From an uncultured Kiritimatiellota bacterium (GTDB lineage Bacteria > Verrucomicrobiota > Kiritimatiellia > RFP12 > UBA1067), in NCBI GenBank assembly GCA_934635225.1, contig CAKTYZ010000003.1:99210-163209 (forward strand): a stretch of 64,000 nucleotides of DNA. The letters run 5' to 3'. Below the pieces are notes generated by a model, which had not been told where the DNA came from, did no database searches, and was given only the letters and a program-made list of their open reading frames with translations. Below, piece by piece: positions 4,653 to 33,111 of this stretch. Positions within the stretch are counted from its first letter, which is position 1. Every line of letters begins with the position of its first letter. The translations under genes and the position numbers were made by a program.

Positions 4653-6734
4653 TCAAGACTTCATCTTGCCGAAGATGTTGCCGTAGCGGTTGACGTTCAA
4701 GGCCTCGACGAACGAGGCGATCTTCGTCACCGTCGAACACGGGTCAATCGATACGTCCATGCAATCGCCCTCCAGCGTGAGAAGCGGCACGTTGATCGAA
4801 TCAAGCTCTTCGCGCAGGTGCTTCGAAAGCGCACGGTCTGCGAGCGAGCAACGCCCGAAGCCATGCGTATAGAGAATGACGCCGTTAAACTGTCCAGCCG
4901 GGACGGCGCGCTTGACGTACTCGACACGAAGTTCGGGATCCAGAAAACCAGACTGCAGAAGCTTCTTTGCCAGTGAACGATACGGATCTTTCGGGTTCAA
5001 CGGCTCCCAGCCAACGAAGTTCGTCTCCTCAAAGACAATCGGCGCGTTGCACGTCGTCTCGATGTAGTCAAGATGCCGCGTGTCATAAAACGGCGGCAGG
5101 TGAAGCCAGAGAAGACGATGCGTGTCACCGATCGAATAGCGCTTCTCGGCCCATTCCTTCTTCATCTGCAACTCTTCCAGATACGCCTTCTGGATGTCCA
5201 CGAGCTCCTGCCGTCCCCAAAGCTGAGAAAAGACAATCGCGTTGTAGACCGCCTCGCTGCCTCGCACAAGCGGCGGCGACGTGAAGCGGAGCTCCTGGCA
5301 TTTCTTCGCGAGCGTAGCGGCCTCGTTTGAGAGGACGCACGCCTCTTCGAGCCGTGCCGGATCAAGCTTGCGGCCAAACGCCCTCTCCATTTCGGAGACG
5401 GCTTCAGCCAACCCGTCCGCCATCATCTCGACAGCGTTGCGCGAATGCGCGTTGATCGGCGTCTGAAGCGAATAGAGCCTGTTCGTAATCTTGTGTTCGC
5501 GCGCGAGATCGGCGAAAACGCGCTCTGCCTGCTGGCAGGGCTGGACGGTCGAGACAATGTAATCGGGCTTTTCAAGATCCATGCCCTCCAGCATGCGCAG
5601 GAACGAGCATGTCTGCCCGTCGAACCCCTTCTGCGCGGCACGTCCGAGAGCTTCCTTCACCTTGTCCGCCCGGCGCCCAAAGAGCGCGGCATACGTCTCC
5701 AGCGTGCGGACACGGCAGTCCATTGCGTTCAGGATCTCCGTCGGGAAGAAGAGGTTCCGCCAAACCAGGGGTTTTGTCGTGTCCTTTGAGAAGAAATCAT
5801 GCTTGGTCGATTTGATGCGCAGGAGAACCGACTTGCCGCGCGTCGGCTCATATTCGACCTTTGCGAGGTCGAGATGCCCGGACTTCTTGAGGCTCTCCAG
5901 CTGCTTCGCGATAACCGCCGCGCCGAGGGCTCCCATCACCTCGTGATATTGCGGAATGATGATTTCGCTGCCCGTCAGCTTGCCAAGGAAGTAGGCCACC
6001 GCCTTGTTGAACGCAACACCTCCCTGAAAGAGGATCTTCCGCCCCGGGGCGTTCAGGAGAAGCTGCCCGACCGAATTCAAGATCGTCCTCGCCTGTGCCT
6101 TGCACGCACCCGCAAGGAGGTCCCCGATCGGCACACGATTCTTGAACTTGTTGATTGACGTCGCCGAAAGAACGGCACAGACGGAGCTGAATTCCGTCTT
6201 CGAGTCGTAGTTCACGTGTTCGGCGACCTCTTCAATCTTGACGCCAAGCTTCTGGGCGACGGAATCGAGGAAACTCCCCGTGCCCGCCGCGCAAACGCCG
6301 CTCATCATGCTCGTCCAGAGATTCATCGGCGGATTGTAGACCATGCATTTTGAATCCTGTCCGCCGCAGTCAATGATTGCGTCCACATCCGGGTGCAGGA
6401 ACTTCGCACCCGCGACATGCGCTGTCACTTCACTGACCTGAAAGTCGTAAGGGATGAACTTCTTCGTATCCTCGACGATCTGGCTGCCAGTAACGACGAT
6501 TGCGGCAATCTGGTCGAAACTCGTGCCCGCGACTTTGAGGAACTCAAGCGCAAGGCGCTTGACCGCGCCACCGGAACACCGTCCGCAAGCATTGCATTGT
6601 CCCGTACAAGAGACTTTCCCGGACTCGACAGGTTGCGTGCGCTTGTAAACAGAGCGGAGAACCTTGCCGTCTTCTGCGAGAAGAACGGCCTTGAAGGTCG
6701 TGGAGCCAATGTCGATGCCAAGATAGGTTTTCAT
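4653..6734 (-). CDS. fusion protein: BadF/BadG/BcrA/BcrD-type ATPase (acyl-CoA dehydratase activase) N-domain plus 2-hydroxyglutaryl-CoA dehydratase D-component (HgdB)-like C-domain
   Basis: 693 aa. N-terminal MKTYLGIDIGSTTFKAVL sugar-kinase/HSP70-fold ATPase with Cys-rich cluster ligands. The C-terminal roughly 400 aa resemble the HgdB/YjiM family. SD AAGGA upstream. Confidence 0.6.
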   Translation of the reverse strand: MKTYLGIDIGSTTFKAVLLAEDGKVLRSVYKRTQPVESGKVSCTGQCNACGRCSGGAVKRLALEFLKVAGTSFDQIAAIVVTGSQIVEDTKKFIPYDFQVSEVTAHVAGAKFLHPDVDAIIDCGGQDSKCMVYNPPMNLWTSMMSGVCAAGTGSFLDSVAQKLGVKIEEVAEHVNYDSKTEFSSVCAVLSATSINKFKNRVPIGDLLAGACKAQARTILNSVGQLLLNAPGRKILFQGGVAFNKAVAYFLGKLTGSEIIIPQYHEVMGALGAAVIAKQLESLKKSGHLDLAKVEYEPTRGKSVLLRIKSTKHDFFSKDTTKPLVWRNLFFPTEILNAMDCRVRTLETYAALFGRRADKVKEALGRAAQKGFDGQTCSFLRMLEGMDLEKPDYIVSTVQPCQQAERVFADLAREHKITNRLYSLQTPINAHSRNAVEMMADGLAEAVSEMERAFGRKLDPARLEEACVLSNEAATLAKKCQELRFTSPPLVRGSEAVYNAIVFSQLWGRQELVDIQKAYLEELQMKKEWAEKRYSIGDTHRLLWLHLPPFYDTRHLDYIETTCNAPIVFEETNFVGWEPLNPKDPYRSLAKKLLQSGFLDPELRVEYVKRAVPAGQFNGVILYTHGFGRCSLADRALSKHLREELDSINVPLLTLEGDCMDVSIDPCSTVTKIASFVEALNVNRYGNIFGKMKS

Positions 6735-6888
6735 GAAGCCGATTCCTTAAATGAGCGCGTATTATAACATAATTTAGCGGAAAGCGTCTTCCGTTCGTCC
6801 AAACTCAACATTCGACACGGCATCTCGGCGTCAAGATGTCCGACATTGCGGCGCCCGTCACAAAGGCGCAGGAGACGCGCTTCCCCCG

Positions 6889-8379
6889 TCAGTCCTTCTG
6901 CGGACGGTAGACGGGCGCGAGCGCGTCGTGAATGCGGCGATAGCAAGTAAAGAGATGATCGTATCGCGCCACTGCCTCAGGATCGGGTCGAATCGTGCGA
7001 TCGATATGCAGGCATTTCGCGACGGCATCCTTCACGTCCGCAAAAAGACCGATTCCCGTCCCAGCCAAGAGGCAGGCTCCAAAACTCGCGTCTCCGGGCG
7101 TCGGGACGGCAACTTCACAGTTGAAAACATTCGTGACGATCTCGCTCCAAAGCGTCGAGCGTGCGCCGCCGCCAATCAGGAAGATGCGCTTCACGGCAAG
7201 ACGCATCTCTTCCAGCGTTCGGTAGCAGTCCCTGAGCGAATAGGCGACGCCTTCCATCAACGCGCGCGAAAAGTCACCACGCGTTGAAGAGATCGAGACA
7301 CCCGTAAACGAGGCGCGCAAGTTCGAGTCCCAGTAGGGGCATCGCTCGCCCTGAAGATAGGGGTGAAAGAAGATGCCGTTCGCGCCAATCGGAGAGTTCT
7401 TCGCCTCCGCGCCCATCACTTCCCAGACGTTCCGCCCGTCAAGGGACTCTTTGTAGAAGTTGTCACGAAACCACCGCTGGCAGAGGGCCGCTGAGTTCGT
7501 CGCGCTGACCGAGTACCACATGCCCGGAACGATGTGCGAATAGGTGAGCGTCTTCGGATGCGGATGAGCCTCGGCCGTCATGGCATTGACGTTCCCCGCC
7601 GTCGCGAGCTTGATGATGAGGTCACCCGGCTCGACGGCACCCGCACCATAGTCTTCGACCGCGCTGTCGGACGAGCCACAGACAACTGGCATCCCCTCAG
7701 GAAGCCCCGTCGCGGCAGCCGCCTCAGCCGTCACGCCGCCCACGACATCCGTCGGATTCACTAGAGGCGGCAATGCAGACATCTTCAGCCCAGCAAGCGC
7801 AACCAGCTCAGGGCTCCAACACGCCTTCTTCATATCCCAGAAAAGCGTACCCTGCGCCTCGATGCCATCCGTCGCGACATGTCCTGTCAGCAGATAGCGC
7901 ACATAATCCTTCACAAAAAGGACATGCTCCGTCTTCTTGAGGACATCCGGCTCGTTCGCCTTCAGCCACATCATCTGAGGGAGCGTCCATGTCGGCGCGG
8001 GCATCTGGTAGCACGTTGAGAAGACCTTCTCGCCCCATCCCGCCTTCAACGCCGCGCATTCTGACGTCGCCCGCTGGTCCGTCCACATGATTGTCCGCCG
8101 GACGGGCTTCAATGCCGCGTCGAGCAACACGGCGTTGTGCGTCGAGCCGTCCAGCGCACAAGCCGCGACAGACTTGAGGTCAACGCCCTTCTCCGCAAGC
8201 TTCCCAAGGGATGCGCAAAGCGCCGCCCACCAATCGGACGGCGTCTGCTCGCTCCATCCCGGATGCTCGTGGAAAGTCGCAAATTCCGTTGATGCCTCGC
8301 CGACAAAACGTCCCTTCTCGTCAAGAACCGTCGTCTTACACCCACCGGTGCCGTAGTCAATGCCCAAAAGTAGTTTCAT
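6889..8379 (-). CDS. FGGY-family carbohydrate kinase (xylulokinase/glycerol-kinase-like)
   Basis: 496 aa. MKLLLGIDYGTGGCKT N-terminal FGGY motif. A C-terminal FGGY_C-like region (GGGARS..W) is present. SD AAGGGAG. Confidence 0.75.
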   Translation of the reverse strand: MKLLLGIDYGTGGCKTTVLDEKGRFVGEASTEFATFHEHPGWSEQTPSDWWAALCASLGKLAEKGVDLKSVAACALDGSTHNAVLLDAALKPVRRTIMWTDQRATSECAALKAGWGEKVFSTCYQMPAPTWTLPQMMWLKANEPDVLKKTEHVLFVKDYVRYLLTGHVATDGIEAQGTLFWDMKKACWSPELVALAGLKMSALPPLVNPTDVVGGVTAEAAAATGLPEGMPVVCGSSDSAVEDYGAGAVEPGDLIIKLATAGNVNAMTAEAHPHPKTLTYSHIVPGMWYSVSATNSAALCQRWFRDNFYKESLDGRNVWEVMGAEAKNSPIGANGIFFHPYLQGERCPYWDSNLRASFTGVSISSTRGDFSRALMEGVAYSLRDCYRTLEEMRLAVKRIFLIGGGARSTLWSEIVTNVFNCEVAVPTPGDASFGACLLAGTGIGLFADVKDAVAKCLHIDRTIRPDPEAVARYDHLFTCYRRIHDALAPVYRPQKD

Positions 8380-8391
8380 TCTGCTCCCTTT

Positions 8392-9006
8392 TTAGAACAA
8401 TTTGTCCTCAATGGCCGCACAAAGCGCATGATAAACAGGCAAATGCAGTTCCTGGACTCTGTACGTCTCCCGTTCGGGCACGCCGATCACGGCATCCGCC
8501 AGTGCTCCCAGTTGCCCTCCGCCCGCGCCTGTCAAGGCTATGACCTTCAGTCCCTTCGCATGGGCAACACGCGCGGCATTCACGCAGTTCACGCTGTTGC
8601 CGCTCGTGGAAAGAGCAATCAGCACGTCTCCCGGACAGCCAAGGCCCAAGACCTGCTGGGCAAACGCCGTCTCCCAGGAAACGTCATTGGCAAACGCCGT
8701 CAGGATCCCGCACATCGACACGAGCGAAACCGCCGGCAGAGACCCTTCGAGCCGACCGACGAGATCCGACGGCAGATGCGCCGCAAGGTCCGGCGGAATG
8801 CTGCGGCGCTTGCGGAACTTCTTCAGGAGTTCGCCCACGATGTGGTCGGAATCCGACGCGCTCCCGCCATTTCCACAGGTCAACACCTTGCGCCCTGAGC
8901 GAAAACACGTCAACAAAAGATCAAAGGCTTTGACGATCTCGCCTTGACAAACTGCCAACTGCGGATAGCGTTCAATGAGCTCGGAGAGGGTATCGTCCAT
9001 AAGCAT
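8392..9006 (-). CDS. SIS-domain sugar-phosphate isomerase (GmhA / phosphoheptose isomerase-like)
   Basis: 204 aa. VLTCGNGGSASDSDH and LIALSTSGNS are SIS / GmhA motifs. Confidence 0.7.
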   Translation of the reverse strand: MLMDDTLSELIERYPQLAVCQGEIVKAFDLLLTCFRSGRKVLTCGNGGSASDSDHIVGELLKKFRKRRSIPPDLAAHLPSDLVGRLEGSLPAVSLVSMCGILTAFANDVSWETAFAQQVLGLGCPGDVLIALSTSGNSVNCVNAARVAHAKGLKVIALTGAGGGQLGALADAVIGVPERETYRVQELHLPVYHALCAAIEDKLF

Positions 9007-9008
9007 GC

Positions 9009-9941
9009 TTATTTCTCCAGATTTGCCACGGCAAGCGCCGCATAATCACCGATGTTCTCCGAAAGTCCCGCCGGGACGATCCGACAGACTTGGCGGGCAA
9101 GCGGCAACGCCTCCCGTTCAAGAATCGGCTGCACCTCGCGCAAGAAACGCGCGGACTGACGCATGAAGACACCGCCCAAAACAATCATTTCAGGATTAAG
9201 AACGTCAATCACATACGCGAGAATCATTCCAAGATGCGCAGCCGATTCCCTGAAGACTTCCGTACAGAACGCATCACCTGCATCCATACGAAGAAACAGT
9301 TCCTTTGCGCTGAAGCCCTCCGGCAAGTCAAGCCCCTTCTCTTGCGCCCGAATCCGCGCGAGCTTCGCCATCCCCGCGCCTGAACAGAACCCCTCGGCGC
9401 TGCCGGCCTTGTTGTAGCCAACTGGCCCCGTCGGCGCGAGGCGAATGTGCCCGATTTCGCCGGCATTGTCGTTCGTGCCGGCATAAAGCCGTCCATTCAG
9501 GATGAGACCCGCCCCAAGCCCTGTTCCAAACGTCATGAACACCATGTTTCGCGTGCCTCGTCCCGCACCGAACTTCCATTCCGCGTATGCGCAGGCATTC
9601 GCGTCATTTTGGAGATGGACCGGGACCGTGTAGCGATCCGCAAAGAACTGCACGACAGGCACCTCGTCCCAACCCGGCAGGTTCGGCGGGGAGAGGATGA
9701 CACCGCGCGCCGAGTCCAACGGTCCGCCGCAGGAGACCCCGACGTTCGCAATCCGATGCGCCGCGCCCGCAAAGTAGGCGTCAATCCGCTGACGAAACGA
9801 CTCCAGGACCGTCTGCCACGCAAGTCCTGCCGTCGGGAACTCCTCACGGTGCAGAATCTTCACCGAATCCGTCGTACAGTCGCCGATGGACAACGCGCAC
9901 TTCGTTCCTCCAATGTCTACGCCAACAGATACGTCGCTCAT
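9009..9941 (-). CDS. ROK-family sugar kinase (glucokinase / N-acetylglucosamine kinase-like)
   Basis: 310 aa. VGVDIGGTK, then a GAGLGAGLIL-type Gly-rich loop and the ROK Cys/His cluster region. Confidence 0.8.
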   Translation of the reverse strand: MSDVSVGVDIGGTKCALSIGDCTTDSVKILHREEFPTAGLAWQTVLESFRQRIDAYFAGAAHRIANVGVSCGGPLDSARGVILSPPNLPGWDEVPVVQFFADRYTVPVHLQNDANACAYAEWKFGAGRGTRNMVFMTFGTGLGAGLILNGRLYAGTNDNAGEIGHIRLAPTGPVGYNKAGSAEGFCSGAGMAKLARIRAQEKGLDLPEGFSAKELFLRMDAGDAFCTEVFRESAAHLGMILAYVIDVLNPEMIVLGGVFMRQSARFLREVQPILEREALPLARQVCRIVPAGLSENIGDYAALAVANLEK

Positions 9942-9951
9942 TCGCCTCCTT

Positions 9952-12900
9952 TTAAATGGCCGTCACATCCCATTTCTCGGTCGTGGGCCTCGCCTCAAGC
10001 TTGAAACCCTGCACATCCTTCAGGCGAAGTTCGGGATGAAGTTCCTCCGCCTTCCACAGGCGCAAAACCGGACCGTCCACGCCTTCGGCGCGCACATCAC
10101 GCAAGTCAAGAAGCCGAACATAGGCCCCGCGCATGAATTCCCGCACAGGGTCCCGAAACGCCATTTCGCAAGCATTCAGGCGCAACACCAGCGGCACACG
10201 CGCATCCGCCCAGACGTTGAGCGGCTGACCGATGTTCCGAGCCTTGACTCGACAGAAGGCGATGTCCGCCAACGGTGCGCCCTTCTGCCAGATTTCATTG
10301 CCGGAAAAATTGTAATGGAGAAAACGGTCCGCTCCGTCAATCTCGCAGTCTTCGACGACGATATCACCCGGAGGATTGCGAATCGGCTGAAGGAAATCAG
10401 CGAAATAGGTCCAGAACGAAAGCAAATTGTGACGTCCGATTCCCTGGCAGTCGTTCCCGGCAATCTGATCTGCACGCGGCAGGGTATTGCGAATCGGCCA
10501 CTCACCCGGCCCCCAGACCTTGACCCGCCGCACACGCACATGCGTGCCGCCGAAACGAAAGGCGCTGCATGCCGTGTTGAGACGGCAGTCCTCAACCAGC
10601 ACATCCGTGTTGTCATACCCCGCGATGCAGTCGTCTCCGCACCGGATGTCGCAATTCCGAACCGTCACGCGATCGCACCCGCGCATATGGACACCGTCAT
10701 GTCCGCCACGTATGGTCAAGTTCTCGAAACAGAGGTCCGCGCACGTATTGAAGTGATTCGCCCAGTTCCCCGTGCGCCGAAGCTCGATGCCGCGCACCAA
10801 GACGTTCGTCGATCCAAACGCATTGATGCCATGCGCCCCCCGAAAGCCCTCCTCGCCCTGCGGATCGAAAGAGTTGTTTCCGTCGATCACACTTCCGCGC
10901 TCGCCGAGAATCACCACGTTCGTCGCCGCAACAAGACGGATGACGCCGCGATTCCAACGCGCTGCAGGATTCGTGAGCGGATGCCGATAGTCCTTCGAAC
11001 GCTTGGCGATGGGGAGCCACAACGCCTGCCGCGCCGAAGCGAGGACTCCCGGCGGCAGAGGCTCAACCTCGTCGGCCTCGAGAATGTCATACGCATCCAA
11101 ATCCCGCGAAGCGGAGAGGACGGCATTCTCGAGCAAATGAAGCGTCACGTTCGACCGCACACGCAAAGACGAGATCCTGTGGACTCCCGGCGCAATCTCG
11201 ACTGTTCCGCCTCCCTGCCGCCACACCGCATCAATCTGGCCCTGAATCTCCGCCGTTTCATCGGTCAGCGCGTCCGGAAGCCATTTCTTGACCCGTTTCC
11301 AGTCGAACGGCGGTTCACCATAAAGGAAGTGATTCACATAAGGCTTGCCATCCAGCGTCGCATCGATCTGGATGACGCCCTGACCTGAAAACGCTACAGA
11401 GCCCAATTCGACCTTGCCATTCGCAGGAATCCGGAAGGTCTTCTCCAGCAAGACCGTCTCCGTCTCCAAGTCCGTCAAGCGCGCCGTGCCTTCTATCGGA
11501 CGACGCGCGTCATTCACCGCCCACGCCTTGTGGTCATCGGTCACGCAGACGATTTGGTCGCGCTGGGCGTTCTTGAGCGCGAAGTAGGCGCGCTTCTTGC
11601 CGCCATACCAGTCCACGACCGCGTCCGAGATGACCGGCCAGCCGTCTCGCACGTTCCACCAGATCAGCCCATTTGAGCGCGTGAACTTACGGCTGCGGAA
11701 GAGTTCGCAGAACGTCTTCATCGCCTCGGCTTGAACGAACTGGCTCTGCGCAATGAACGTGTCGAGATCCGTCTCGACACCGCCAAACATCAAACGGACC
11801 TGATTCGTCATGAGCGAATTGCGACGCTGTCCAAACGAGCCGACACGCCAATCAACCGCCTTGAAAACCCACTCGTCGTTCCAGCGAAGTTCCGAAGGAT
11901 TCTTGAGAAACGACGCCGACGCGGTCACCCATGGATAGACATTCGACGCGGTCATCATCCGTTCGAGAGACGCGCGATTCGGGCATCCATGATACCCCAT
12001 CTCGGAGACGAACCACGCGGGGCTATTCGTGTAGTAGTCCGTCTTGTACGCGCCACGTGCCCCCCAAAGATGGTCCTCGGACGGCTGGGCGCGCCTCGCG
12101 AAGACATCCGGCGAGACATACGGCGAACTCGGCAGATAGGGCCGCGTCACGTCGAACTCGTAGATGACATCCGCCAGCGTGCGACGACTGTTGCGGTCAC
12201 CATTCGGGTCGCGTCCCAAAGCCCCGAGCTGCCACGACGCCGCCTGGTCGTTCTCGTTGTTGCCGCTCCACAAGACAAGCGACGCGCGGTTGCGCAAACG
12301 CAATATGACCGACCGCGCCTCGGCCTCCGTCTGCTTCGCGTAGTCGTCCCCCTGCGGGAAGACGCTGCACCCGGTCATGAAGTCCTGCCAGACCATAAGG
12401 CCGTTCGCGTCACACCAATCGAAAAACGCATCCGGCTCATACACGCCACCGCCCCAAACACGGACCATGTTGCAGTTCAGGTCCTTAAAGAGTTCCAGCG
12501 TCTCGACAATCCGGTCTTTCTGCCGCGACGGAATCGCGTCAAGCGGAACCCAGTTCGACCCTCGGACATAGCAGGGCTCGCCGTTGATCTTGAAGAGGAA
12601 CTGTCCGGGACGCTCGGGGCCGTAGACGTCTTCGCGCACAAGCTCAACCGTCCGCACGCCAATCTTCTCCGCATGCGAGGCCAGAACACGCCCGTCATCG
12701 CCCTGCACCTCAAAACGCGCTTCATACAGCGCGGGTTCGCCAGAGCCGCGCGGCCACCAAAGATCAGGGCGGTCCAGACGAAGCCGCAAATTAGGGAAAT
12801 GCCCCGTCAGCGTCTGTTCGGCCTTCGCCGCGAGCCTGCCGTTCCGCGTCAGCGTCGCGACAATCTTCGCATGGTCCAGCGTGGAAAACGGCGACCGCAC

Positions 12901-13605
12901 GCGACAGCGCGCAATCAGATCGGCGAAAGCCCTTTTCGCGTCAAGAGAACGGACGATCCACGCCGTTTGGTCAATCTGCACGGGGCCTTCGACCCTCAGC
13001 GAAACATCGCGCCAAAGGCCGCTGACAAAGGCCCGAGGCAGAATGTCCCAGCCGCCCATGTGCCCCGCCTTCCGGAACGGCTCCCCGTCCGCACCGCCAC
13101 TCATCGAATAGCCGAGTTCGCCCAATGTCGCGTCCTGCGCCTCGCACATCACGCTCCGCAACAGGACCTGTACCGTGTTCATGCCATCACGCAACCGCGA
13201 CGTTATGTCAAAGCGATGTGGGATCAACATATTAGAGGACCCACCGATCTTTTCGCCGTTCAGGAAGTAGTCCGCCAACGTATCAACACCGTCAAAACAC
13301 AACAGAACGCGTCCGCCCGGTGGGATGGACGGCTTCTCGAATGCCCGCGCATAAAGCCACTGGTAACCTTCATACGGACGCAACAGACGGGCGTTAAGGC
13401 CGACCTCTGGCACGGGCAAGTCACCCGCTCGCACAAGATCAAGTTCACAATTTCCGGGAACAGTCGCCGTGACGGTTCTCACCTGAAGTCCCGAGGGCAA
13501 GGGAAGGGACCGAACGGCCCCTGCGTCCGGCTGGGGAAATGCGTCAAGACGCCAGTCGCCGTTCAACGACAGAACAGCGGCAATCACACAAAGGGCATTT
13601 ATCAT
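9952..13605 (-). CDS. secreted bifunctional glycoside hydrolase: GH2 (beta-mannosidase-like) N-terminal module fused to a GH28-like right-handed beta-helix module
   Basis: 1217 aa with a signal peptide. GH2 blocks: LCFDGVDTLADYFLNGEKIG, NCNMVRVWGGGVYEP..NGLMVWQDFM and WSGNNEN (beta-mannosidase-type). C-terminal about 430 aa carry NCDIRCGDDCIAGYDN and repeated NxTI(R/L) beta-helix turns typical of GH28. Confidence 0.7.
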   Translation of the reverse strand: MINALCVIAAVLSLNGDWRLDAFPQPDAGAVRSLPLPSGLQVRTVTATVPGNCELDLVRAGDLPVPEVGLNARLLRPYEGYQWLYARAFEKPSIPPGGRVLLCFDGVDTLADYFLNGEKIGGSSNMLIPHRFDITSRLRDGMNTVQVLLRSVMCEAQDATLGELGYSMSGGADGEPFRKAGHMGGWDILPRAFVSGLWRDVSLRVEGPVQIDQTAWIVRSLDAKRAFADLIARCRVRSPFSTLDHAKIVATLTRNGRLAAKAEQTLTGHFPNLRLRLDRPDLWWPRGSGEPALYEARFEVQGDDGRVLASHAEKIGVRTVELVREDVYGPERPGQFLFKINGEPCYVRGSNWVPLDAIPSRQKDRIVETLELFKDLNCNMVRVWGGGVYEPDAFFDWCDANGLMVWQDFMTGCSVFPQGDDYAKQTEAEARSVILRLRNRASLVLWSGNNENDQAASWQLGALGRDPNGDRNSRRTLADVIYEFDVTRPYLPSSPYVSPDVFARRAQPSEDHLWGARGAYKTDYYTNSPAWFVSEMGYHGCPNRASLERMMTASNVYPWVTASASFLKNPSELRWNDEWVFKAVDWRVGSFGQRRNSLMTNQVRLMFGGVETDLDTFIAQSQFVQAEAMKTFCELFRSRKFTRSNGLIWWNVRDGWPVISDAVVDWYGGKKRAYFALKNAQRDQIVCVTDDHKAWAVNDARRPIEGTARLTDLETETVLLEKTFRIPANGKVELGSVAFSGQGVIQIDATLDGKPYVNHFLYGEPPFDWKRVKKWLPDALTDETAEIQGQIDAVWRQGGGTVEIAPGVHRISSLRVRSNVTLHLLENAVLSASRDLDAYDILEADEVEPLPPGVLASARQALWLPIAKRSKDYRHPLTNPAARWNRGVIRLVAATNVVILGERGSVIDGNNSFDPQGEEGFRGAHGINAFGSTNVLVRGIELRRTGNWANHFNTCADLCFENLTIRGGHDGVHMRGCDRVTVRNCDIRCGDDCIAGYDNTDVLVEDCRLNTACSAFRFGGTHVRVRRVKVWGPGEWPIRNTLPRADQIAGNDCQGIGRHNLLSFWTYFADFLQPIRNPPGDIVVEDCEIDGADRFLHYNFSGNEIWQKGAPLADIAFCRVKARNIGQPLNVWADARVPLVLRLNACEMAFRDPVREFMRGAYVRLLDLRDVRAEGVDGPVLRLWKAEELHPELRLKDVQGFKLEARPTTEKWDVTAI

Positions 13606-13696
13606 GCGAGATCCTTCCTACTTTGTCATTATCCCGATTCAAGGTAATGGGAATTATAGCAAATCTCCCATCCCCTCTGCAAACTGCGGCAGAAGA

Positions 13697-13898
13697 CGAA
13701 AATGGTACCAAAATGGTAATATCTAACGGGTCAGCAAAGAAGAGAGGCAGGCCATGGGGATCGACAAGGAGAGAAAGCGAACAACGCCACCCCATAGATG
13801 CCGGGGACGGCCCGGAACGGATGCTTCAACCGATGCGGATGGAAGGGGCGTCTCCATGCGGATGGATGAGCCGCCTCCATGCGGATGGGCCGTGGGGA
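13697..13898. repeat. copy 1 of a duplicated ~200-bp intergenic element ending in tandem 22-bp CCATGCGGATGG-containing units
   Basis: Direct sequence comparison with 55935-56136. They share an exact 36-mer AAAATGGTAATATCTAACGGGTCAGCAAAGAAGAGA, then about 130 nt at roughly 85-90% identity, then 2 (here) or 3 (copy 2) tandem units CCATGCGGATGG(A/G)TGAGCC.CC.C. Confidence 0.7.
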
Positions 13899-13981
13899 GC
13901 CTGTCCCTGCCGGGACGCGACGCGTTTCAAGAGCGCATCCCCTCGTCAGAAGGCCTGAAGCAAGGCCGAGTCACAAGTCGT

Positions 13982-14343
13982 TCATTCGCCGCGCAGCCGC
14001 CAGCCGAGCGGCGCGACCGCCAAGCCGTCCGGCAGGGCGTAGGGCCTGTCCGCATAGTTGACGACGATCTCCGTTCCGTCCGACCAGCGCGTCGCGTAGA
14101 CGCCCTCGGCTCGCGGTCCTCGTAGGCGCGAAAGATCCGTTGGACGCCCTCCTTCAGCGCTGCGTTCGAGAGGCCCGTCTCAGGATCGCTCACGTCCGTC
14201 CGCCACTTCCATTCGAGGTAGAGCGGCATGTTCGTGAGCGTGGCGGCGGGCGACGCCTTACGCTGGGGCACGACCCACTCCTCGCCGCGTCCGGACGCGC
14301 CAAAAGCCGCAAGCGCGACAAGAATTCCGCAGATGATTCTCAT
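13982..14343 (-). CDS. small secreted hypothetical protein with an apparent -1 frameshift near 14110
   Basis: Signal peptide MRIICGILVALAAFGASG. The frame is sensible to ..QRIFRAYEDREP, then turns Arg-rich. My translation of the -1 frame continues plausibly (EGVYATRWSDGTEIVVNYADRPYALPDGLAVAPLGWRLRGE*) to a stop at 13982-13984. Confidence 0.3.
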
Positions 14344-14359
14344 TTATGCGCCTCCTTCA

Positions 14360-15832
14360 TCACTTCTCATTTGGACCGGACATCGCAGCGTCCGACGCGA
14401 CAGGGACAACAACGAATCCCCACGGGCCGAGGTCGAACGACCGCGCGCCCGTGCGCCGTGCGTCACGCACGAGGAGGGGCGTATCCGCGAGGTGGCCCTT
14501 CACGTCGCGGTCGGTGTCATCCGCCGCAAGATAGCTGGGACGGTCGGCCTTTAAGACGGCAAACGAGACGTCACAGACCACCTTCTCGTCGCTCCAGTTC
14601 TGGACGACCAGAACCGTCTCGCCCTTCCCGCGCCGGACGAACGCCGTCACCTGCTCCGGCGCGGTCGTGTCGAGCCAGACGAGGCCGTCGATCCCGTTCG
14701 CCGCCGTGAAGGCGGGATGCGCGCGGCGCAGGGCCGCCAGCCGCTTCACGAAGGCATGACGAGACTTCCCGACGCCGCGTGCGAGCTGCGACCAGTCCAT
14801 CGGCGTCTTGCCGAACATCGAGTGGCGCGGGTCCGCGTCGGCGATCTCGTTGCCCTGGAACAGCATCGGGACGCCGTCGACCGTGAACATCCAGACGAGC
14901 ACCTGCTCGACCTTCCGCGCGCCCCAGGCGGCCTCGCAACGCGGCCGCGCGTCCGTGGCGATGTCGTGGTTCTCGTAGTGGTTCACGAACCGCGCCCCGC
15001 GCGGACACTCGGCCTCGCGCGACGTCCAGGACGCGCGCACCTTCTGCGCCGAGAAGCCGGGGAATCCGCCGTAGTCCGCGTCAAAGCCCTTGTACTGGTC
15101 GCAGATCGTGAAGCCCTCGCACAGCAGCACCGCCTCGCCAGACGAGACCGCGTCCATCATGTCGTGCGCGTCGCACCAGAAGTCGAGCGGAATGCCGTCG
15201 CCGACGTCGCACCGGAAACCGTCGCAGCCGTACCGGGTCATCAGGTGCCGCATGTTGCCCATCAGGTACTTCCGCAGCGCCGGCTCGGCGAAGTTCAGCT
15301 TCGGAAAGCGCCACGGCCCCTTCTTCACGGTGCCGTCCGCGTTCCACCACGTGAACTCCAGATGCTCCTTCAGGAACGGGGCCGTCGGGCCGCAGTGGAG
15401 GTAGACGAGATCGAAGAGGACCTTCAGGCCCAGCGCGTGCGCCCATGCGCAGAAGTCCGCGAGATCCCGGTCCGTGCCGTACTCCTCGTCCACGTGGAAG
15501 TAGTCGGCGATGCGGTACTGGTTCTTCGGATTCTCGAATCCGCTGCGAATCTGCCGGGGGCTCCAGAACGACTTGTCCATCGACGTGTCCATCTTCATGA
15601 CAGGCACGAGGTAGACGATCGTCACGCCGAGATCCTTCAGGTACGGCAGCTTTTGCGCGATCGTCTTCAGCGTGCCCTCCGGCGTGAACGCGCGCGGCTG
15701 GATCTGGTACATGACGCCCTCCGTAAACCACGCGGGCGTCTTGCGCGCCTCCTGCATCCAGGCATTGGCGCCCAAGCCCACACGGGACAAGACCGCAAGC
15801 GACAGAATCATCAAAAGCTTTTTCATCGGCAT
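14360..15832 (-). CDS. secreted GH13-family alpha-amylase
   Basis: Signal peptide MPMKKLLMILSLAV. GH13 regions: DLVYLHCG, GFRCDVGDGIP (region II with catalytic Asp), FVNHYENHD (region IV). Strong SD GGAGAAAGGA. Confidence 0.8.
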   Translation of the reverse strand: MPMKKLLMILSLAVLSRVGLGANAWMQEARKTPAWFTEGVMYQIQPRAFTPEGTLKTIAQKLPYLKDLGVTIVYLVPVMKMDTSMDKSFWSPRQIRSGFENPKNQYRIADYFHVDEEYGTDRDLADFCAWAHALGLKVLFDLVYLHCGPTAPFLKEHLEFTWWNADGTVKKGPWRFPKLNFAEPALRKYLMGNMRHLMTRYGCDGFRCDVGDGIPLDFWCDAHDMMDAVSSGEAVLLCEGFTICDQYKGFDADYGGFPGFSAQKVRASWTSREAECPRGARFVNHYENHDIATDARPRCEAAWGARKVEQVLVWMFTVDGVPMLFQGNEIADADPRHSMFGKTPMDWSQLARGVGKSRHAFVKRLAALRRAHPAFTAANGIDGLVWLDTTAPEQVTAFVRRGKGETVLVVQNWSDEKVVCDVSFAVLKADRPSYLAADDTDRDVKGHLADTPLLVRDARRTGARSFDLGPWGFVVVPVASDAAMSGPNEK

Positions 15833-15843
15833 TTCCTTTCTCC

Positions 15844-17949
15844 TCACCGCGCCGCCGCCGGTGCTGTGTCTGCCACGGCGTCGCACAGTCCGCGGTAGTA
15901 GCCGAACGACTCGGCAAGCGGCAGTTCGTTGTCCTCGAAGTCCTTCTCGTACTCAATGAGGCAATAGCCGTCAAAGCCGACCTCGGCCAGCGCGGCGAAA
16001 ACGCCTTTCAGGTCGATGACGCCGCGCGGCCCTTCCTTGGCGCCGCCGCTCCGGTCGGCGGCGGAGATGTTCTTGAGATGGACTTCGCAAATGCGCTTGC
16101 CGTGCCGACGGATGAACGCGACAGGATCACGTCCCGCCCGAAGCTCGTGCCCGATGTCAAGGCAGACGCCGATGCGCACGTCCCGTTCGCCAATGCGCGC
16201 CAAAGCGGCCTCGCCCGTCGGATAGCACTGCGGCAGGTCTGGCCCGTGGTTGTGGATGGCCGCCCGGATGTCGTAGCGCTTGACGTATTTCTCGATGATG
16301 TCCAGCGCCTGATCAGACTCGACACGCACAGGCTTTCCGTCGACGACCGCGTCTTCATAGGGGACGCACGAGATGTACTTCATGCCGCAGCGCGCGGCGA
16401 AGGCGAAGAGCCGCGCGATTTCCGCCTCGCCCTTGCAGTAGGTCGGCCCGCACGAGACAAGCGTGACGCCCTGTGCGGCAAGCTTCGCCTTGTACGCGGC
16501 GATCTCGTCCGCCGTCGCGTCAAAATCCAGCGTCCCCTCCTTCAGCCCCATGTAATGGCAGTCGATCCGGTTCATGAACGCCAGCGCCCGGTCGAGATCC
16601 GTCTTCCAGAACGTGAAGCGCGCCATGCCCAGCCTGAACGGCAGGCGCCACGTCCGTGCGGACGGGCTTTCGACCGTGCGGATCGGCGGTTGCGTCACGC
16701 GCGTCAGCGAAAGCCGCCACGCGACGGGGTGCACGGCGGCGATCTGCGCATGCAGCGCGTCCGCCCGCGCCGACAGCTCGCGCCGCGCCGGATAGAGCTT
16801 CTCGAACGTGTCGAACATGCGGTTGCGCCAACCGCCCCACGCGAGAGACTTTGACTTCGGACGTTCGCCCTTGATCCAATTCGCCACGGCCGCCGCGTCC
16901 TCGCTGTCGATCTTGTCTTCGGCCATCCACGAGAGAACCTGCCCGAACACGCGGCGGTCCTGCGCCAGCCGCGCCAGCTGCCGCGTCGTCTCCAGTGTCC
17001 GGCGCGAACGGACCTGGTTCGGCGTCTCGCGTTCGGCGAGATTGACGCCCGCCGCCAAGTCCATCGCCGTGAACGAGCCGAGCGACGCGCCGTCCGCCTT
17101 CAGCTCGTACAGGCCGGACGCGAGGTTCTTCACGACCAGCGTCTCGGTGTTCAGCCGCGAGGCGACGGGATAGACGGCGGCCAACTTGCGGTAGTCGGCA
17201 TCCACCGCGCACGGCAGCCCCTGCGGCGTATAGGACGCCTCAAGCGATGACGCACCCGCCGCGTCAAGTTCGACGCGCGAGAACTCGCCCTTCTCGCCCG
17301 TCGCCGACCAGATGAACGAGGCCATCAGCATATGACCCGCGAAGTCGGGGTGGATGCGGTCGTTGTTGAACCAGCGGTCGGGGTTGTCCTGGTAGATCTT
17401 GCGCATCGGCCCCATCAGGTCGACGAGCGGCAGTGCCTTCTCCTCGGCCAGCTTGCGCACCGCTTCCGCACAGGCGGACAGCTTCTCGTCGCTTCGCTCC
17501 AGCGGCTTGGGCTGATGTCCCCAGACGTCGTAGGGCGAGGGCGTGAGCAGCGTGACCGCCTTCCCGTCCGCCTGAAGCCGCCGGACGATTTCGCGCATCG
17601 CCTGCGGATACCTCTCCGCGCAGGCGTCGCTGCCGATGTCGTTCATGCCGAACATGACGAAGACGCGATCGACGTCCTTCGCGGCGGGCTCTTTCGCCCA
17701 CCGAGCCGCGCCGCCCCAGCTCGTGTCTCCGCTCTTGCCCATGTTCTCGAAGCGCGCGCCCTGTCCCGGATGGCGGATCGCCGTCAGGTACTCGAGATAG
17801 AACGCCTGGTTCCCGGCCTCGGAGATCGAGTCGCCGAAGAGGCCGATCCGCTCGTCCGCGCGAAACGGCGTCGGCGCCGTCGCCGCCATCGCCACTGTAG
17901 AAACGGTCATTGCGACCGCAAACAACAGTTCAGTTAGCTTCATTTTCAT
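15844..17949 (-). CDS. secreted fusion of an SGNH/GDSL hydrolase domain and a xylose-isomerase-like TIM-barrel (sugar-phosphate isomerase/epimerase) domain
   Basis: 701 aa. Signal peptide, GLFGDSISEAG (GDSL block I), MFGMNDIG (block III) and DRIHP (block V). The C-terminal roughly 280 aa match the AP-endonuclease-2 / xylose-isomerase-like TIM fold (..HNHGPD.., CLDIGHE, GYCLIEYE). Confidence 0.65.
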   Translation of the reverse strand: MKMKLTELLFAVAMTVSTVAMAATAPTPFRADERIGLFGDSISEAGNQAFYLEYLTAIRHPGQGARFENMGKSGDTSWGGAARWAKEPAAKDVDRVFVMFGMNDIGSDACAERYPQAMREIVRRLQADGKAVTLLTPSPYDVWGHQPKPLERSDEKLSACAEAVRKLAEEKALPLVDLMGPMRKIYQDNPDRWFNNDRIHPDFAGHMLMASFIWSATGEKGEFSRVELDAAGASSLEASYTPQGLPCAVDADYRKLAAVYPVASRLNTETLVVKNLASGLYELKADGASLGSFTAMDLAAGVNLAERETPNQVRSRRTLETTRQLARLAQDRRVFGQVLSWMAEDKIDSEDAAAVANWIKGERPKSKSLAWGGWRNRMFDTFEKLYPARRELSARADALHAQIAAVHPVAWRLSLTRVTQPPIRTVESPSARTWRLPFRLGMARFTFWKTDLDRALAFMNRIDCHYMGLKEGTLDFDATADEIAAYKAKLAAQGVTLVSCGPTYCKGEAEIARLFAFAARCGMKYISCVPYEDAVVDGKPVRVESDQALDIIEKYVKRYDIRAAIHNHGPDLPQCYPTGEAALARIGERDVRIGVCLDIGHELRAGRDPVAFIRRHGKRICEVHLKNISAADRSGGAKEGPRGVIDLKGVFAALAEVGFDGYCLIEYEKDFEDNELPLAESFGYYRGLCDAVADTAPAAAR

Positions 17950-18260
17950 TTTGCTGTTTTCCTGTTTGGCTTATTTTGGATTTTAGAAGTCTTTGAGGGA
18001 AGGCTCTTGAATCAAGGCGCTTCGCGCAGACACGAAACGCCGCCGCTCGCGCGTCCTCATATCAACAGTCTCACGCAGAGCCGCAGAGAACGCAGAGATT
18101 CGCCGGACGCCCCTACGCGCTCTGCGCGAACCCTTGAAACAACACCGAATCAAGGCGTCGAGAAGAACCGCGAAGCCTTTTCGTGTTTCGACGTAAGGCT
18201 TGTTCGGCTTTCGTGGTCTGCGTCGCAGACGCCACCCTCTGACGCCATTGCGCCATTCCG

Positions 18261-21056
18261 CTATCTTTCCACCACATAATGGAACGTCGCCTGGCCGTCG
18301 CGGCCGGCCGTCGAGGCCGTGAAGCGCAACGCCCCGTCTTCGTGTCGCGCCGGAACCGCATAGCGGACACGCCCCTCTTCCGACAGCGCGGACACCCTCC
18401 ACGCGCCCTCCGGCACGGACAGCGCGACATCCGCCGATGCCTTGCGCACGAGCTGCGGCGCCTTGCCCCAGTCGAAGAGGATCTTCCGCGACGCGTCCGT
18501 GAACGTGATGCCCGTGTTGACCGTATCGACCAGATGCACGAGCAGAAGCCGCCGCGACGCGGCGATCTCCGCGCCGTCCAGTGCGCTGACCCAGAGCGCC
18601 GTCGGCTCGCGGTCGCCGGTCCGCACGCGCAGCGGCCCCGCCGCAAACGCGCCGCCCGGCACGTGGCCGCCGCACGTGCGCGGCGTCTCGACGACGAACG
18701 TCCCCTTCTCCGCGTCGATGCGCACCGCCCCGCCGCACGCGGACGGCAGCGGATCGTCCGCGCCAAGGCCGAGCGCGCGCCGCCGCACGGCGTCCAGGCT
18801 CTTGTGCGCGTAGTCGTCCGGGTAGCGGAAGACTTCGCGCACGCCGTCGGGCAGGGCGTCCGCCGCCGTCGCCGTGCCGACCTTGCCGTGCCACGTGAGC
18901 CAGTTGAGGTGATGCCACGTGTCCTCGGACGGCCCGACGTCCGCCGGACGCGCGAAGACGTCCTTCGGGACGACGTTCGCGAACTTCTTTCGCGCCTCCG
19001 GGAGGTCGCCGCGCAGGTAGAGGCAGACGGCGGCCAGGTCTGCCGCGCGCATCACGGGGTCGCCTGCCATGACGAACGCCCCGAGCGCCGCCGAGGCCGG
19101 GTCGGCATACTGCGTGCGGTCGCCCGCGAAGTCGAAGTGCCACAGCCCGCCCCAGCCCTGGAACGCCGCCGCCGCGCCGACGAACAGGCCCTGCCCCACG
19201 CGATACGGGTTGGGCGCGCAGTAGTTCCACTCCGTGACCGTGAACGGCTTTCCCCACTCCTTGGCGAACGAAGGGAAAACCGCGCCCATCGCGTTCTGCA
19301 CGGGGTTGCCCGTCCCCGCCGTGGACGGCGGCTTCCAGTTCTGCCCGAGGAAGTTCGGATGGTCCTGGTAGAAATGCCCGTCCACGTAGTCGTAGGGCTT
19401 CACGCGCGCCAGCCGCGTGTGCATCGGATGGAACACGCCGTTCATGTCGCAGAGAAGCGCCTTGCACCCCAGCTCCTCGCGCAGGAACTGCCGCGTCCGC
19501 CGGGCGAAGCGCCGTTCGGCGTCCGAGAGGAACAGCTTGAAGGCGACGGCGTGCCGCGTCGGCGCCATGACGTTTTCGGGGAAGTTCTCCGGGATGTCCG
19601 CGTAGTCGGCGGGCGACGTCTCCCGCTTGACGGCCAGCCACCGCTTCCACGCCGTCCGCCAGGCCTCGAAGCCTTCGAGGCGCGCCGTGTCGGCGCCGAG
19701 GCAGCCCTCGTTCACGAGCGAGATCCAGCCGAGCGCCGGCTCCTCCGCGAGCGACCGCCCCGTATAGACGTTCCTGTGCGCGAGGAAGTTCCGCGCGAAC
19801 GCCAGGTAGTTGGAGTAGACGCCTTCATGGACCTGCACGAGGGCCTTGAAGTCCCCCATCCCGATCAGCCCGTTGCGGTCGAAGCCGACGCTCCGCCACG
19901 TGATGTTCCAGCTGCGCGAGCAGAAGAGGTCGGTCGTGAGGTAGAGCCCGTTCGCGACGCACGCGGCGACGAGCGCGTCGAAGCGCGCCATCTTCACGGG
20001 GTCGGGCGTGATGCCGTCCGGCGCGCGCTCCAGCAGCTCCGACTCCTGATGGTGGATGCGCACGGCGTTGTAACCCATCCGCGCGAGGCGCACGGCGAGC
20101 GCATCCGCCTCGGTCTTCGTCTCGGGACAGAGCGCGCGCGTGCAGAGGTTGACGCCGTAGAAGCGCGCCGGCACGCCCGGACGCCCCTCGAACGCGAAGT
20201 CGTCCCCCTTCGCGACGATCCGCCCCCATTTCCCAGCGGGGGCGCCCGTCGGGCGCATCGCCGAGAAGTCGAGCGGCGAACCGGCGAGAACCGTCTTCGC
20301 GGGCTTGAACGGCACCCAGCCCTTCCCGCCGGAGATGACGTAGTTGCCGTCCGGCCCGACCGTGAGGCCGCCCGGCGCGGAAACCGACAGGGCCACCGCC
20401 GCCGTCACGCCCGGCGCGGGACGACCCGCAATCGACACGCACAGGATCAGCTTGCCGCCGATCTTCGGGTCGCCGGACATCTCCACACCGACGGGACGCG
20501 GCGCGCCGAAGTCGACAGTCATCCGCTCCTGTCCGTGCACGTCAACGAGCGTCAGGACACGGACCTTCCTGTCGAAGCAGCGCGACTTCGGGTTCACGAC
20601 GGGAATCTCGATTCGCGCGCCGTCCGCGACGAGCGCGCCGCCCGCGTAGTCTTCAAGCGGAAGCGTGCCGCGCAGCTCCAGCGAGACGCACGCCGCCTTC
20701 TCCTGCGGCGTCAGCGACCACTCGGCCCGTACGGCACCGTCCGCGTCGCGGAACGAGCAGATTCCGTCCACGTCGCCCTGCGCCCCCGCCCACAGCGGAA
20801 TGAAGCACTTTCGGTTGCCGTCCTTATCCGGCTTGAGGCCGTCCGCCGCCTCCCGCACCTCCCATGTGCCGTTCTTCACGACGTAGGCGCGCGGACGGAA
20901 CTCAACCCCTGCGTACGGCACGCGCAGAATCGCCCCGTAGGCGGGGCGCGCCTCATGGACGGCGCGCGGGGACGCGTCCGCAAACGCGCCCCATGCAGCC
21001 AAAGCCAACAGCCCCAACAGGCCGTTCGCCGAGCAGATTCCTTTCTTCAGCAACAT
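18261..21056 (-). CDS. secreted clan GH-A (GH5-like) TIM-barrel glycoside hydrolase, large multidomain
   Basis: 931 aa with a signal peptide. Candidate acid/base SLVNEG and nucleophile FTVTEWN have the spacing typical of clan GH-A. Family assignment is uncertain. Confidence 0.45.
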   Translation of the reverse strand: MLLKKGICSANGLLGLLALAAWGAFADASPRAVHEARPAYGAILRVPYAGVEFRPRAYVVKNGTWEVREAADGLKPDKDGNRKCFIPLWAGAQGDVDGICSFRDADGAVRAEWSLTPQEKAACVSLELRGTLPLEDYAGGALVADGARIEIPVVNPKSRCFDRKVRVLTLVDVHGQERMTVDFGAPRPVGVEMSGDPKIGGKLILCVSIAGRPAPGVTAAVALSVSAPGGLTVGPDGNYVISGGKGWVPFKPAKTVLAGSPLDFSAMRPTGAPAGKWGRIVAKGDDFAFEGRPGVPARFYGVNLCTRALCPETKTEADALAVRLARMGYNAVRIHHQESELLERAPDGITPDPVKMARFDALVAACVANGLYLTTDLFCSRSWNITWRSVGFDRNGLIGMGDFKALVQVHEGVYSNYLAFARNFLAHRNVYTGRSLAEEPALGWISLVNEGCLGADTARLEGFEAWRTAWKRWLAVKRETSPADYADIPENFPENVMAPTRHAVAFKLFLSDAERRFARRTRQFLREELGCKALLCDMNGVFHPMHTRLARVKPYDYVDGHFYQDHPNFLGQNWKPPSTAGTGNPVQNAMGAVFPSFAKEWGKPFTVTEWNYCAPNPYRVGQGLFVGAAAAFQGWGGLWHFDFAGDRTQYADPASAALGAFVMAGDPVMRAADLAAVCLYLRGDLPEARKKFANVVPKDVFARPADVGPSEDTWHHLNWLTWHGKVGTATAADALPDGVREVFRYPDDYAHKSLDAVRRRALGLGADDPLPSACGGAVRIDAEKGTFVVETPRTCGGHVPGGAFAAGPLRVRTGDREPTALWVSALDGAEIAASRRLLLVHLVDTVNTGITFTDASRKILFDWGKAPQLVRKASADVALSVPEGAWRVSALSEEGRVRYAVPARHEDGALRFTASTAGRDGQATFHYVVER

Positions 21057-21065
21057 GTCCTCACC

Positions 21066-23939: not shown

Positions 23940-24000
23940 TTCTTGCTTCCTTGTCGTTATTTCGTCAGTGAACAGAAATCAGATTGCCAAGGACAGTCAA

Positions 24001-24065: not shown

Positions 24066-24167
24066 CTAAACCCTGTCTCAGCGAGACAGAATCCTGTCGC
24101 ACAGCAGGCGCACAGCGCAAGCGCACGCAGGGCCATCAGGCGGCCCTCAGCGGCCTCAGCTAAAGGC

Positions 24168-32170: not shown

Positions 32171-32176
32171 CTATAT

Positions 32177-33094: not shown

Positions 33095-33111
33095 ATCACA
33101 TACTTCCTAAT

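Follow-up and report, generated by a model that had tools for sequence, protein, structure and literature searches.

A rare fusion of a GH2 beta-mannosidase-type module with a GH28-like beta-helix in an uncultured Kiritimatiellota bacterium

What would a single bacterial protein act on if its N-terminal half resembles a beta-mannosidase and its C-terminal half a pectinase-like beta-helix? This question is raised by an open reading frame (ORF) in a 64,000-nucleotide stretch of DNA from an uncultured Kiritimatiellota bacterium (GenBank assembly GCA_934635225.1, contig CAKTYZ010000003.1, positions 99,210 to 163,209), which is referred to as the window in the following. An initial annotation described the ORF as one secreted polypeptide, in which a module of the beta-mannosidase type from glycoside hydrolase (GH) family 2 is followed by a GH28-like beta-helix. 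The combination was considered uncommon and was taken to suggest either a coordinated attack on mixed mannan/pectic or glycoprotein glycans, or a non-catalytic binding module. The results presented here establish that the fusion is real and rare. Conversely, they make a pectinase improbable, and suggest that both modules, hereafter head 1 (N-terminal) and head 2 (C-terminal), are glycosidase-type enzymes.

The protein of 1217 aa is encoded on the minus strand by one uninterrupted ORF (Table 1), in agreement with the proposed single polypeptide, and all four peptide strings quoted in the initial annotation were found, at aa 377-391, 397-410, 447-452 and 984-999. Pfam places GH2 N-terminal, immunoglobulin-like and TIM-barrel domains at aa 13-489. 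At aa 890-1016 it matches Beta_helix as well as GH28, the latter with 32.2 bits at a cut-off of 22.9 and over positions 51-179 of a profile of 324. The absence of a close fused relative, with the best beta-helix (58% identity) and GH2 (70% identity) relatives both being single-module proteins, could suggest that two adjacent genes had been joined by a sequencing or assembly error. However, an exact look-up retrieved the identical 1217-aa protein from 21 contigs with the same neighbour genes throughout. Their sources, independent in sample and assembler, comprise a metagenome from Hadza gut, a further ENA assembly and two assemblies from Logan. The 90%-identity cluster to which the protein belongs (representative P0283) additionally holds seven full-length 1217-aa variants from NCBI, ENA and Logan. 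An artefact is excluded by these independent records. The junction is also seamless, both folds are complete, and GH2 and beta-helix genes are adjacent in 0/80 related loci, so that there would have been nothing to merge; the probability left for such an error is negligible.

The same 80 loci, drawn from GTDB species representatives with GH2 identities of 70-42%, match only aa ~1-780 of the fusion. As a tblastn search with the beta-helix over these loci and 8 kb to either side gave no match, the fusion cannot be traced to a conserved gene adjacency. From the beta-helix side, no GH2 module was present among the best 120 matches, and no relative exceeded 58% identity outside the protein's own cluster. 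An exhaustive HMMER search of 1.84 billion representatives, with aa 18-1217 as query, likewise returned proteins that are GH2-only or beta-helix-only, with few exceptions (P0166 and P0121, see below). It should be noted that the P0283 cluster is present in the protein collection, yet absent from both homology-search listings; absence from these does not equal absence from the databases. Within these bounds, the fusion occurs in a single species-level cluster only and is rare from either side, and the word "uncommon" was well chosen. Named relatives of both halves are mostly metagenome-assembled genomes labelled Kiritimatiellae (Verrucomicrobia or Lentisphaerae in older labels) from rumen, horse and human gut, which points to a gut-dwelling member of the Kiritimatiellae as the source of the window. 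A literature search found no paper on this fusion or on its beta-helix family.

Head 1 can be assigned as a beta-mannosidase with high confidence. A phmmer search against the PDB aligned aa 11-777 with chain residues 25-790 of 9nfe (E=1.3e-215), and classical beta-mannosidases were far weaker in the same search (E 1e-87 to 1e-56). The N-terminal ~780 aa are thus indeed of the beta-mannosidase type. Structure 9nfe is CapGH2b, a GH2_13 exo-beta-mannosidase from the capybara-gut bacterium "Candidatus Capybacter oxireducens", for which beta-mannosidase activity was demonstrated; polymers are not attacked, and the enzyme is predicted to be intracellular, either periplasmic or cytoplasmic (PMC12770490). 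CAZy GH2_13 is an exo-beta-mannosidase subfamily (PMC12243196). In CapGH2b, the fifth domain is truncated and linked to oligomerisation, and a C427-C517 disulfide serves as redox switch, a feature of a sub-clade rather than of the whole subfamily (PMC12770490). Head 1 keeps the catalytic Glu pair (Table 1) as well as the CapGH2b-specific -1-subsite residues I201, R535, R605 and D670 (here I188, R517, R595 and D661), and is therefore predicted to be active. A redox switch of the CapGH2b type was considered and rejected: the first cysteine is kept as C413 (12367-12369), but the position of C517 is taken by Phe and the loop around F502 contains no Cys, so that the disulfide cannot form. Judged from the alignment, head 1 is almost certainly an active exo-beta-mannosidase that lacks the published redox switch.

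The location of the protein was addressed via its N-terminus. A start further upstream than the ATG at 13605 is impossible, as an in-frame TAG is read at 13618-13620, four codons ahead of it. In the alignment to the solved structure, homology to the GH2 fold begins with the first beta-strand at residue 11, which leaves only MINALCVIAAVLS in front. This stub of 12-13 aa is hydrophobic, carries no charged residue and has no basic n-region. Among the GH2 orthologues, P0122, P0124, P0125, P0127 and P0128 feature signal peptides of 22-37 aa with Lys/Arg, and P0126, P0129, P0131 and P0132 have no signal peptide. The stub may represent the remnant of a signal peptide, not a canonical one; export of the fusion protein appears unlikely, and the periplasm would be the outermost compartment reached. 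The description as "secreted" is accordingly not supported, the uncharged stub being far shorter than the signal peptides of the orthologues. When 6500-14400 was scanned for promoters and terminators, the counts did not exceed shuffle expectation and were uninformative.

Head 2 follows the GH2 end without a linker, at a position where its stand-alone relatives carry a signal peptide or ~12 extra residues. In a search of 5.8 billion proteins with 8000 candidates scored, the beta-helix family comprised at least 1251 matches, the closest among the matches listed being 58% identical. Nearly all of the best 120 matches are stand-alone proteins of 430-475 aa, and the only name among them is "hypothetical protein [Kiritimatiellae bacterium]"; a functional name is missing throughout. 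The family stems mainly from gut and rumen Kiritimatiellae and shares the motifs TGNWA, GGHDG(I/V)H, GDDC(V/I)AGFDN, NTACSAFRFGG and RFLHYNFSGNExWQ. Its members vary in their leaders, which are of the Sec, twin-arginine (TAT) or lipoprotein type or lacking altogether, and the family consequently works in more than one compartment. TAT-type leaders were seen in the stand-alone members P0003 and P0038 (SRQQF…, ARRRLL…). AlphaFold2, supplied with 115 sequences, models aa 778-1217 as a right-handed beta-helix (predicted local distance difference test, pLDDT, 95.3; predicted template modelling score, pTM, 0.94). Exo-acting GH28 enzymes top the Foldseek search with this model (3jur, 2uve and 5olp, the latter labelled "Galacturonidase") at 14-15% identity, and beta-helix adhesins such as PfbA (3zpp) are also among the structural matches. 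The family profile matches 5olp at 8e-23 and both 3jur and 2uve at ~1e-12, limited to the N-terminal cap and the catalytic coils. The model bears out the description of the C-terminal ~430 aa as a GH28-like parallel beta-helix.

At the level of individual residues, the comparison with GH28 gives a mixed picture. For the reference enzyme PG II (sequence in agreement with 1czf at 334/335 positions), the catalytic Asp triad, made up of the Asp of N-T-D and the Asp pair of G/Q-D-D, is D180, D201 and D202; His223 lies in a G/S-H-G motif, and R256/K258 of an R-I-K motif bind the uronate carboxylate. With HMMER, G-H-D970-G of head 2 aligns with G-H-N-N-D-G, and G-D991-D992 with G-D-D, of 5olp and 3jur; the spacing between D970 and D991 is 21 residues, equal to that between D180 and D201 of PG II. 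The conservation of the Asp triad, which the initial annotation had proposed to check, is complete: D970, D991 and D992 are found in all 114 sequences that have a residue at these positions, the 115-sequence alignment containing one gap. H969, N947, W948, C1013, S1014, R1017, R1039, Y1067, R1094, W1106 and E1156 are invariant in 115/115 sequences. Several of these residues form an invariant polar column with ~22-residue spacing, consisting of N947/W948, H969/D970, D991/D992 and C1013/S1014.

Beyond the Asp pair, the similarity fades. An hhalign comparison of the family with PG II yielded a probability of 48%, with an alignment that ends ten residues past GDD, and no R-I-K-like motif could be aligned to PG II as the alignment stops there. 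The invariant A-C1013-S1014 falls in phase with G-H223-G of PG II, the phase being taken from the 22-residue spacing beyond the end of the profile alignment. NCBIfam models for galacturonidase, rhamnogalacturonidase and PglA/B scored at most 61 bits against cut-offs of 432-800 (best, 60.7 versus 600). As the GH28 His and Arg-Ile-Lys motifs are missing, head 2 is regarded as GH28-like and not as a demonstrable pectinase; by its sequences, the family would lack two of the four GH28 signature motifs, and GH28 membership proper is unproven. In head 2 the Asp triad is intact and the substrate site putatively remodelled. We consider catalytic activity of head 2 probable; an activity as pectinase is not indicated. 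A purely binding role of the beta-helix, one of the two options raised at the outset, is disfavoured since the putative catalytic residues are not missing but present and invariant.

Further clues to the role of head 2 come from other fusions of its family. The metagenomic protein P0166 (1245 aa), a singleton on one 5.4-kb contig, combines a classical GH2 beta-mannosidase of the BtMan2A type with the same beta-helix family. Its GH2 part matches 2je8 at 1e-119, contains Ig_mannosidase domains and is 29% identical to head 1. Its beta-helix is ~40% identical to other members, a tree outlier far from the window's module, and P0166 is a second case, independent of the window fusion. A pairing of this beta-helix with a beta-mannosidase occurs in the window protein and P0166 only. 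In 80 metagenomic loci of the family, however, 10/79 host ORFs exceed 600 aa and about one member in eight is fused. The extra regions in the long host ORFs comprise GH97, GH127-like, GH125 (alpha-mannosidase), GH5, BNR_2 (sialidase-like), aldose 1-epimerase and unknown domains, and a rhamnosidase fragment and a second beta-helix were found as further partners. The beta-helix is C-terminal in every fusion. The fusions are dispersed over a neighbour-joining tree, each grouping with stand-alone members (the window module is nearest to P0001 and P0002, at 57%), which argues for about nine or more independent fusion events. Genomic neighbourhoods were less informative. The contexts of five stand-alone members are heterogeneous with no common pathway, and no family dominated when the 79 genes next to beta-helix genes in the 80 metagenome loci were classified by Pfam; only AraC/LacI-type regulators, metallophosphoesterases, MFS transporters and two mutarotases were encountered. 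A different arrangement was noted in P0121 (1490 aa), where a GH92 alpha-mannosidase is N-terminal to a GH2_13 module that is 53% identical to that of the window protein. The P0121 cluster counts 31 members, one of which, P0268, is recorded on 39 contigs by itself. Related bacteria thus possess a further enzyme for mannosides with two heads.

How, then, is the beta-helix to be understood? If it were a true GH28 pectinase, i.e. an exo-galacturonidase or rhamnogalacturonan hydrolase, the protein would attack mixed mannan and pectic material. Several observations point in this direction: the Pfam GH28 score lies above the gathering cut-off, the Bacteroides galacturonidase 5olp is the best PDB match of the family profile, and the NCBIfam polygalacturonase and rhamnogalacturonidase models reach E-values of 1e-16 to 1e-9. 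The invariant R1017, R1039 and R1094 could bind a carboxylate, and there are loose hints at rhamnose (a GH78 neighbour, the fusion with a rhamnosidase fragment, and an HpcH-aldolase cluster). Yet every NCBIfam score remains at least 10-fold under its cut-off, the Pfam match spans less than half of the profile, and an invariant Cys-Ser stands in place of the GH28 His, with no RIK aligned. Polysaccharide lyases (PL), the carbohydrate esterase families CE8 and CE12, GH105 and uronate isomerase are absent from the operon and the scanned neighbours, and no pectin enzyme is found among the fusion partners, which are instead mannosidases, GH97 and BNR proteins. We therefore regard a pectinase as improbable. 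Of the proposed coordinated mannan/pectic attack, the beta-mannosidase side stands and the pectin side is not supported, given that the GH28 His/RIK motifs are missing and that the operon and the scanned neighbours contain no pectin genes.

A non-catalytic beta-helix, serving many glycosidases as a module for glycan binding, oligomerisation or scaffolding, would be in line with its invariably C-terminal position on enzymes of unrelated specificity, as with carbohydrate-binding modules, and with the adhesins among the structural matches. The truncated, oligomerisation-linked domain 5 of CapGH2b fits as well (PMC12770490). However, most members of the family are stand-alone proteins of ~450 aa, which is unusual for a binding module, and the Asp triad and the polar line are invariant although the sequences are only 40-58% identical overall; moreover, the mutarotase fusion implies that a free sugar is produced. 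This alternative is likewise judged unlikely. An even smaller probability is assigned to a non-hydrolytic epimerase or lyase whose substrate would be a mannose-type sugar or a sugar acid, comparable to AlgE-type mannuronan C5-epimerases or beta-helix polysaccharide lyases. A GH28-like hydrolase remains the preferred reading of head 2.

Table 1 Coordinates of the features discussed in the text (window numbering unless a locus or protein is named)
Feature	Position	Strand	Basis
CDS (coding sequence) of the 1217-aa fusion protein, complete	9952..13605	minus	ORF list; stop codon 9952-9954
Shine-Dalgarno-like AGGAAGGA	13612..13619	minus	read from sequence; spacing to ATG 6 nt
N-terminal stub MINALCVIAAVLS, aa 1-13	13567..13605	minus	hydropathy, orthologue N-termini, alignment to fold from residue 11
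GH2 exo-beta-mannosidase module, CapGH2b type (CAZy GH2_13), aa 1-777 (predicted)	11275..13605	minus	phmmer, Pfam GH2 domains
Predicted acid/base E451 in SGNNE (CapGH2b E465)	12253..12255	minus	alignment to 9nfe; role from PMC12770490
Predicted nucleophile E535 in FVSEMGYHG (CapGH2b E553)	12001..12003	minus	alignment to 9nfe; role from PMC12770490
F502 at the position of CapGH2b C517	12100..12102	minus	residue-by-residue alignment to 9nfe
GH28-like right-handed beta-helix module, aa 778-1217	9955..11274	minus	no linker from GH2 end (…KKWLP/DALTDETAEIQ…)
Putative catalytic turns GGH969-D970-G…G-D991-D992-C	10630..10701	minus	HMMER to 5olp, 3jur; hhalign to PG II
Coil(s) that follow the Asp pair, with invariant C1013-S1014, R1017, R1039	10489..10569	minus	115/115 conservation
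ROK-family sugar kinase	9009..9941	minus	Pfam ROK 1e-52; 10 nt downstream of fusion gene
SIS-domain protein, GmhA-like (phosphoheptose-isomerase-like)	8392..9006	minus	Pfam SIS_2; 2 nt after ROK
FGGY kinase, xylulokinase-type	6889..8379	minus	TIGR01312 XylB 406.7 bits, cut-off 380; 12 nt after SIS
GH2_13-ROK/SIS loci	L010, L017, L038, L041, L057-L060, L062, L068, L070, L072-L074, L077, L081, L082, L084		
Beta-helix fusion loci	L111:279-3689, L125:395-3631, L163:1283-4132, L134:4504-7239, L145:4648-7305, L107:71-2407		
Beta-helix fusion proteins	P0063, P0221, P0245, P0099, P0244		

The fusion gene heads a same-strand operon and is followed, at gaps of 10, 2 and 12 nt, by genes for a ROK kinase, a SIS-domain protein and an FGGY kinase. 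For the ROK kinase, no NCBIfam model reached its cut-off, and the SIS protein scored 150-170 bits with the NCBIfam GmhA models, under their cut-offs. The arrangement is conserved: a GH2_13 gene is accompanied by ROK and/or SIS in 18/80 GH2 loci, and this cluster is found in Kiritimatiellae, Verrucomicrobia, Alistipes and other Bacteroidales, Terrimonas, Parapedobacter and Prolixibacteraceae. In locus L017, the ROK gene begins 6 nt past the GH2 stop with no beta-helix in between, and in the window the beta-helix is placed exactly between GH2 and ROK. In the simplest history, a GH2_13-ROK-SIS operon of one species-level lineage would have taken up a beta-helix gene, minus its signal peptide, in frame between GH2_13 and ROK. 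GmhA isomerises a ketose phosphate to a manno-aldose phosphate, and a GmhA-like SIS protein could for this reason serve as phosphomannose isomerase; by this analogy, it might complete a compact route from mannosides to fructose-6-phosphate. Downstream, separated from the sugar-kinase operon by a 154-nt gap, lies a 693-aa ORF (4653-6734, minus strand) with a BcrAD/BadFG-type activase ATPase and a 2-hydroxyglutaryl-CoA-dehydratase D-component-like domain.

From these elements a two-headed exo-glycosidase for mannoside oligosaccharides can be drawn up, and we rate this overall mechanism as having an even chance of being right. An imported beta-mannose oligosaccharide would be trimmed inside the cell or in the periplasm by both heads of the fusion protein. 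Head 1, acting with retention, would remove non-reducing beta-mannose from oligosaccharides and not from polymers. Head 2 would hydrolyse with inversion, most likely via the GH28-type triad D970, D991 and D992, and take a different sugar off this oligosaccharide, which would be a substituent in the way of head 1 or else the residue exposed once head 1 has acted. The freed monosaccharides would then be phosphorylated and isomerised by the co-transcribed ROK kinase, the GmhA-like SIS protein and the xylulokinase-type kinase. That both heads share a substrate is suggested, in a Rosetta-stone type of argument, by the two independent beta-mannosidase fusions and by the exo-glycosidase and mutarotase partners; the mutarotase fusion fits a family that releases a free aldose anomer. 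A broader and more speculative proposal, considered less likely than not, is that the head 2 family constitutes a new GH family or, within GH28, a subfamily of deep divergence, with Cys-Ser for His and a specificity that has not been described. In Kiritimatiellae, its members would be welded repeatedly to the C-terminus of exo-glycosidases, and the resulting enzymes would work in two steps, "deprotect-then-cleave". Judged from the window protein and P0166, the substrate would then be a decorated beta-mannoside, and GH2_13-ROK-SIS would be an unrecognised mannoside route with the GmhA-like SIS as phosphomannose isomerase.

Multi-catalytic carbohydrate-active enzymes are already known as a kind, and head 1 adds a new member to a clade that has been characterised. 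The main value of the protein lies in the clue that it offers to the role of a large uncharacterised beta-helix family and of the GH2_13-ROK-SIS cluster. Two independent beta-mannosidase fusions, together with alpha-mannosidase and mutarotase fusions, provide a testable handle on the beta-helix substrate. As Kiritimatiellae are abundant, uncultured degraders of gut glycans, an assignment of the family would improve the annotation of many metagenomes. An easy mis-annotation is also corrected, in that the label "GH28" does not denote a pectinase here.

Other parts of the window hold further unusual ORFs. In a 1029-aa ORF (37695-40784, minus strand), aa 48-327 form an ADP-ribosylglycohydrolase domain and aa 570-776 a GH5 cellulase-family domain, which is an unusual combination. 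A 701-aa ORF (15844-17949, minus strand) comprises an SGNH/GDSL hydrolase and a xylose-isomerase-like TIM barrel (AP_endonuc_2), and is adjoined by a GH13 alpha-amylase-family gene (14360-15886). The GC content is 66-69% at 14-26 kb (14001-26000) and 47-53% at 32-36 kb (32001-36000), where a radical-SAM ORF (33559-35754) and ORFs with no Pfam matches are located; the remainder of the window is at ~60%. This unevenness may stem from horizontal acquisition or a mosaic origin.

Among known systems, CapGH2b, which is a trimer, is the closest to head 1. Both can be aligned end to end and share the two catalytic Glu, an unusual -1 subsite (Ile for Trp, with R605, D670 and R535), a short C-terminal domain 5 region and an origin in a gut microbiome. 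In contrast to CapGH2b, the window protein has Phe at the position of C517 and hence no redox pair, and continues beyond the GH2 end with a beta-helix of 440 aa. It stems from Kiritimatiellae whereas CapGH2b is from Bacteroidota, and is neighboured by ROK, SIS and FGGY genes instead of GH173 and GH5_57. Regarding the overall architecture, P0166 resembles the window protein in its N-terminal beta-mannosidase and C-terminal beta-helix, and retains the signatures GGHD, GDDC, ACS and HYNFSGNE. It differs by its BtMan2A-type GH2 part with Ig_mannosidase domains, its clear signal peptide and its distant beta-helix branch.

Head 2 can be set beside the exo-acting GH28 enzymes 5olp (Bacteroides galacturonidase), 3jur (Thermotoga exo-polygalacturonase) and 2uve (Yersinia exo-polygalacturonase), which are likewise right-handed beta-helices of ~440 aa. 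They have in common with head 2 the N-terminal cap motif TDxTxAIQxAID…GGG as well as Asp and Asp-Asp on successive coils 21 residues apart, within GDDC(I/V)A, but are only 14-18% identical to it. In the head 2 family, G-H-D-G replaces the G-H-N-(T/N)-D-G of GH28 and an invariant Cys-Ser its G/S-H-G, R-I-K has no alignable counterpart, and the invariant motifs NTACSAFRFGG and HYNFSGNExWQ are additional. Finally, the multi-catalytic enzymes of the same lineages, i.e. P0121 and the fusions of GH97, GH125, GH127-like, GH5 or BNR_2 modules with the beta-helix, derive from gut or rumen metagenomes of the Kiritimatiellae type. They combine two glycosidase-type modules per chain as observed here, with partner modules that differ from those of the window protein.

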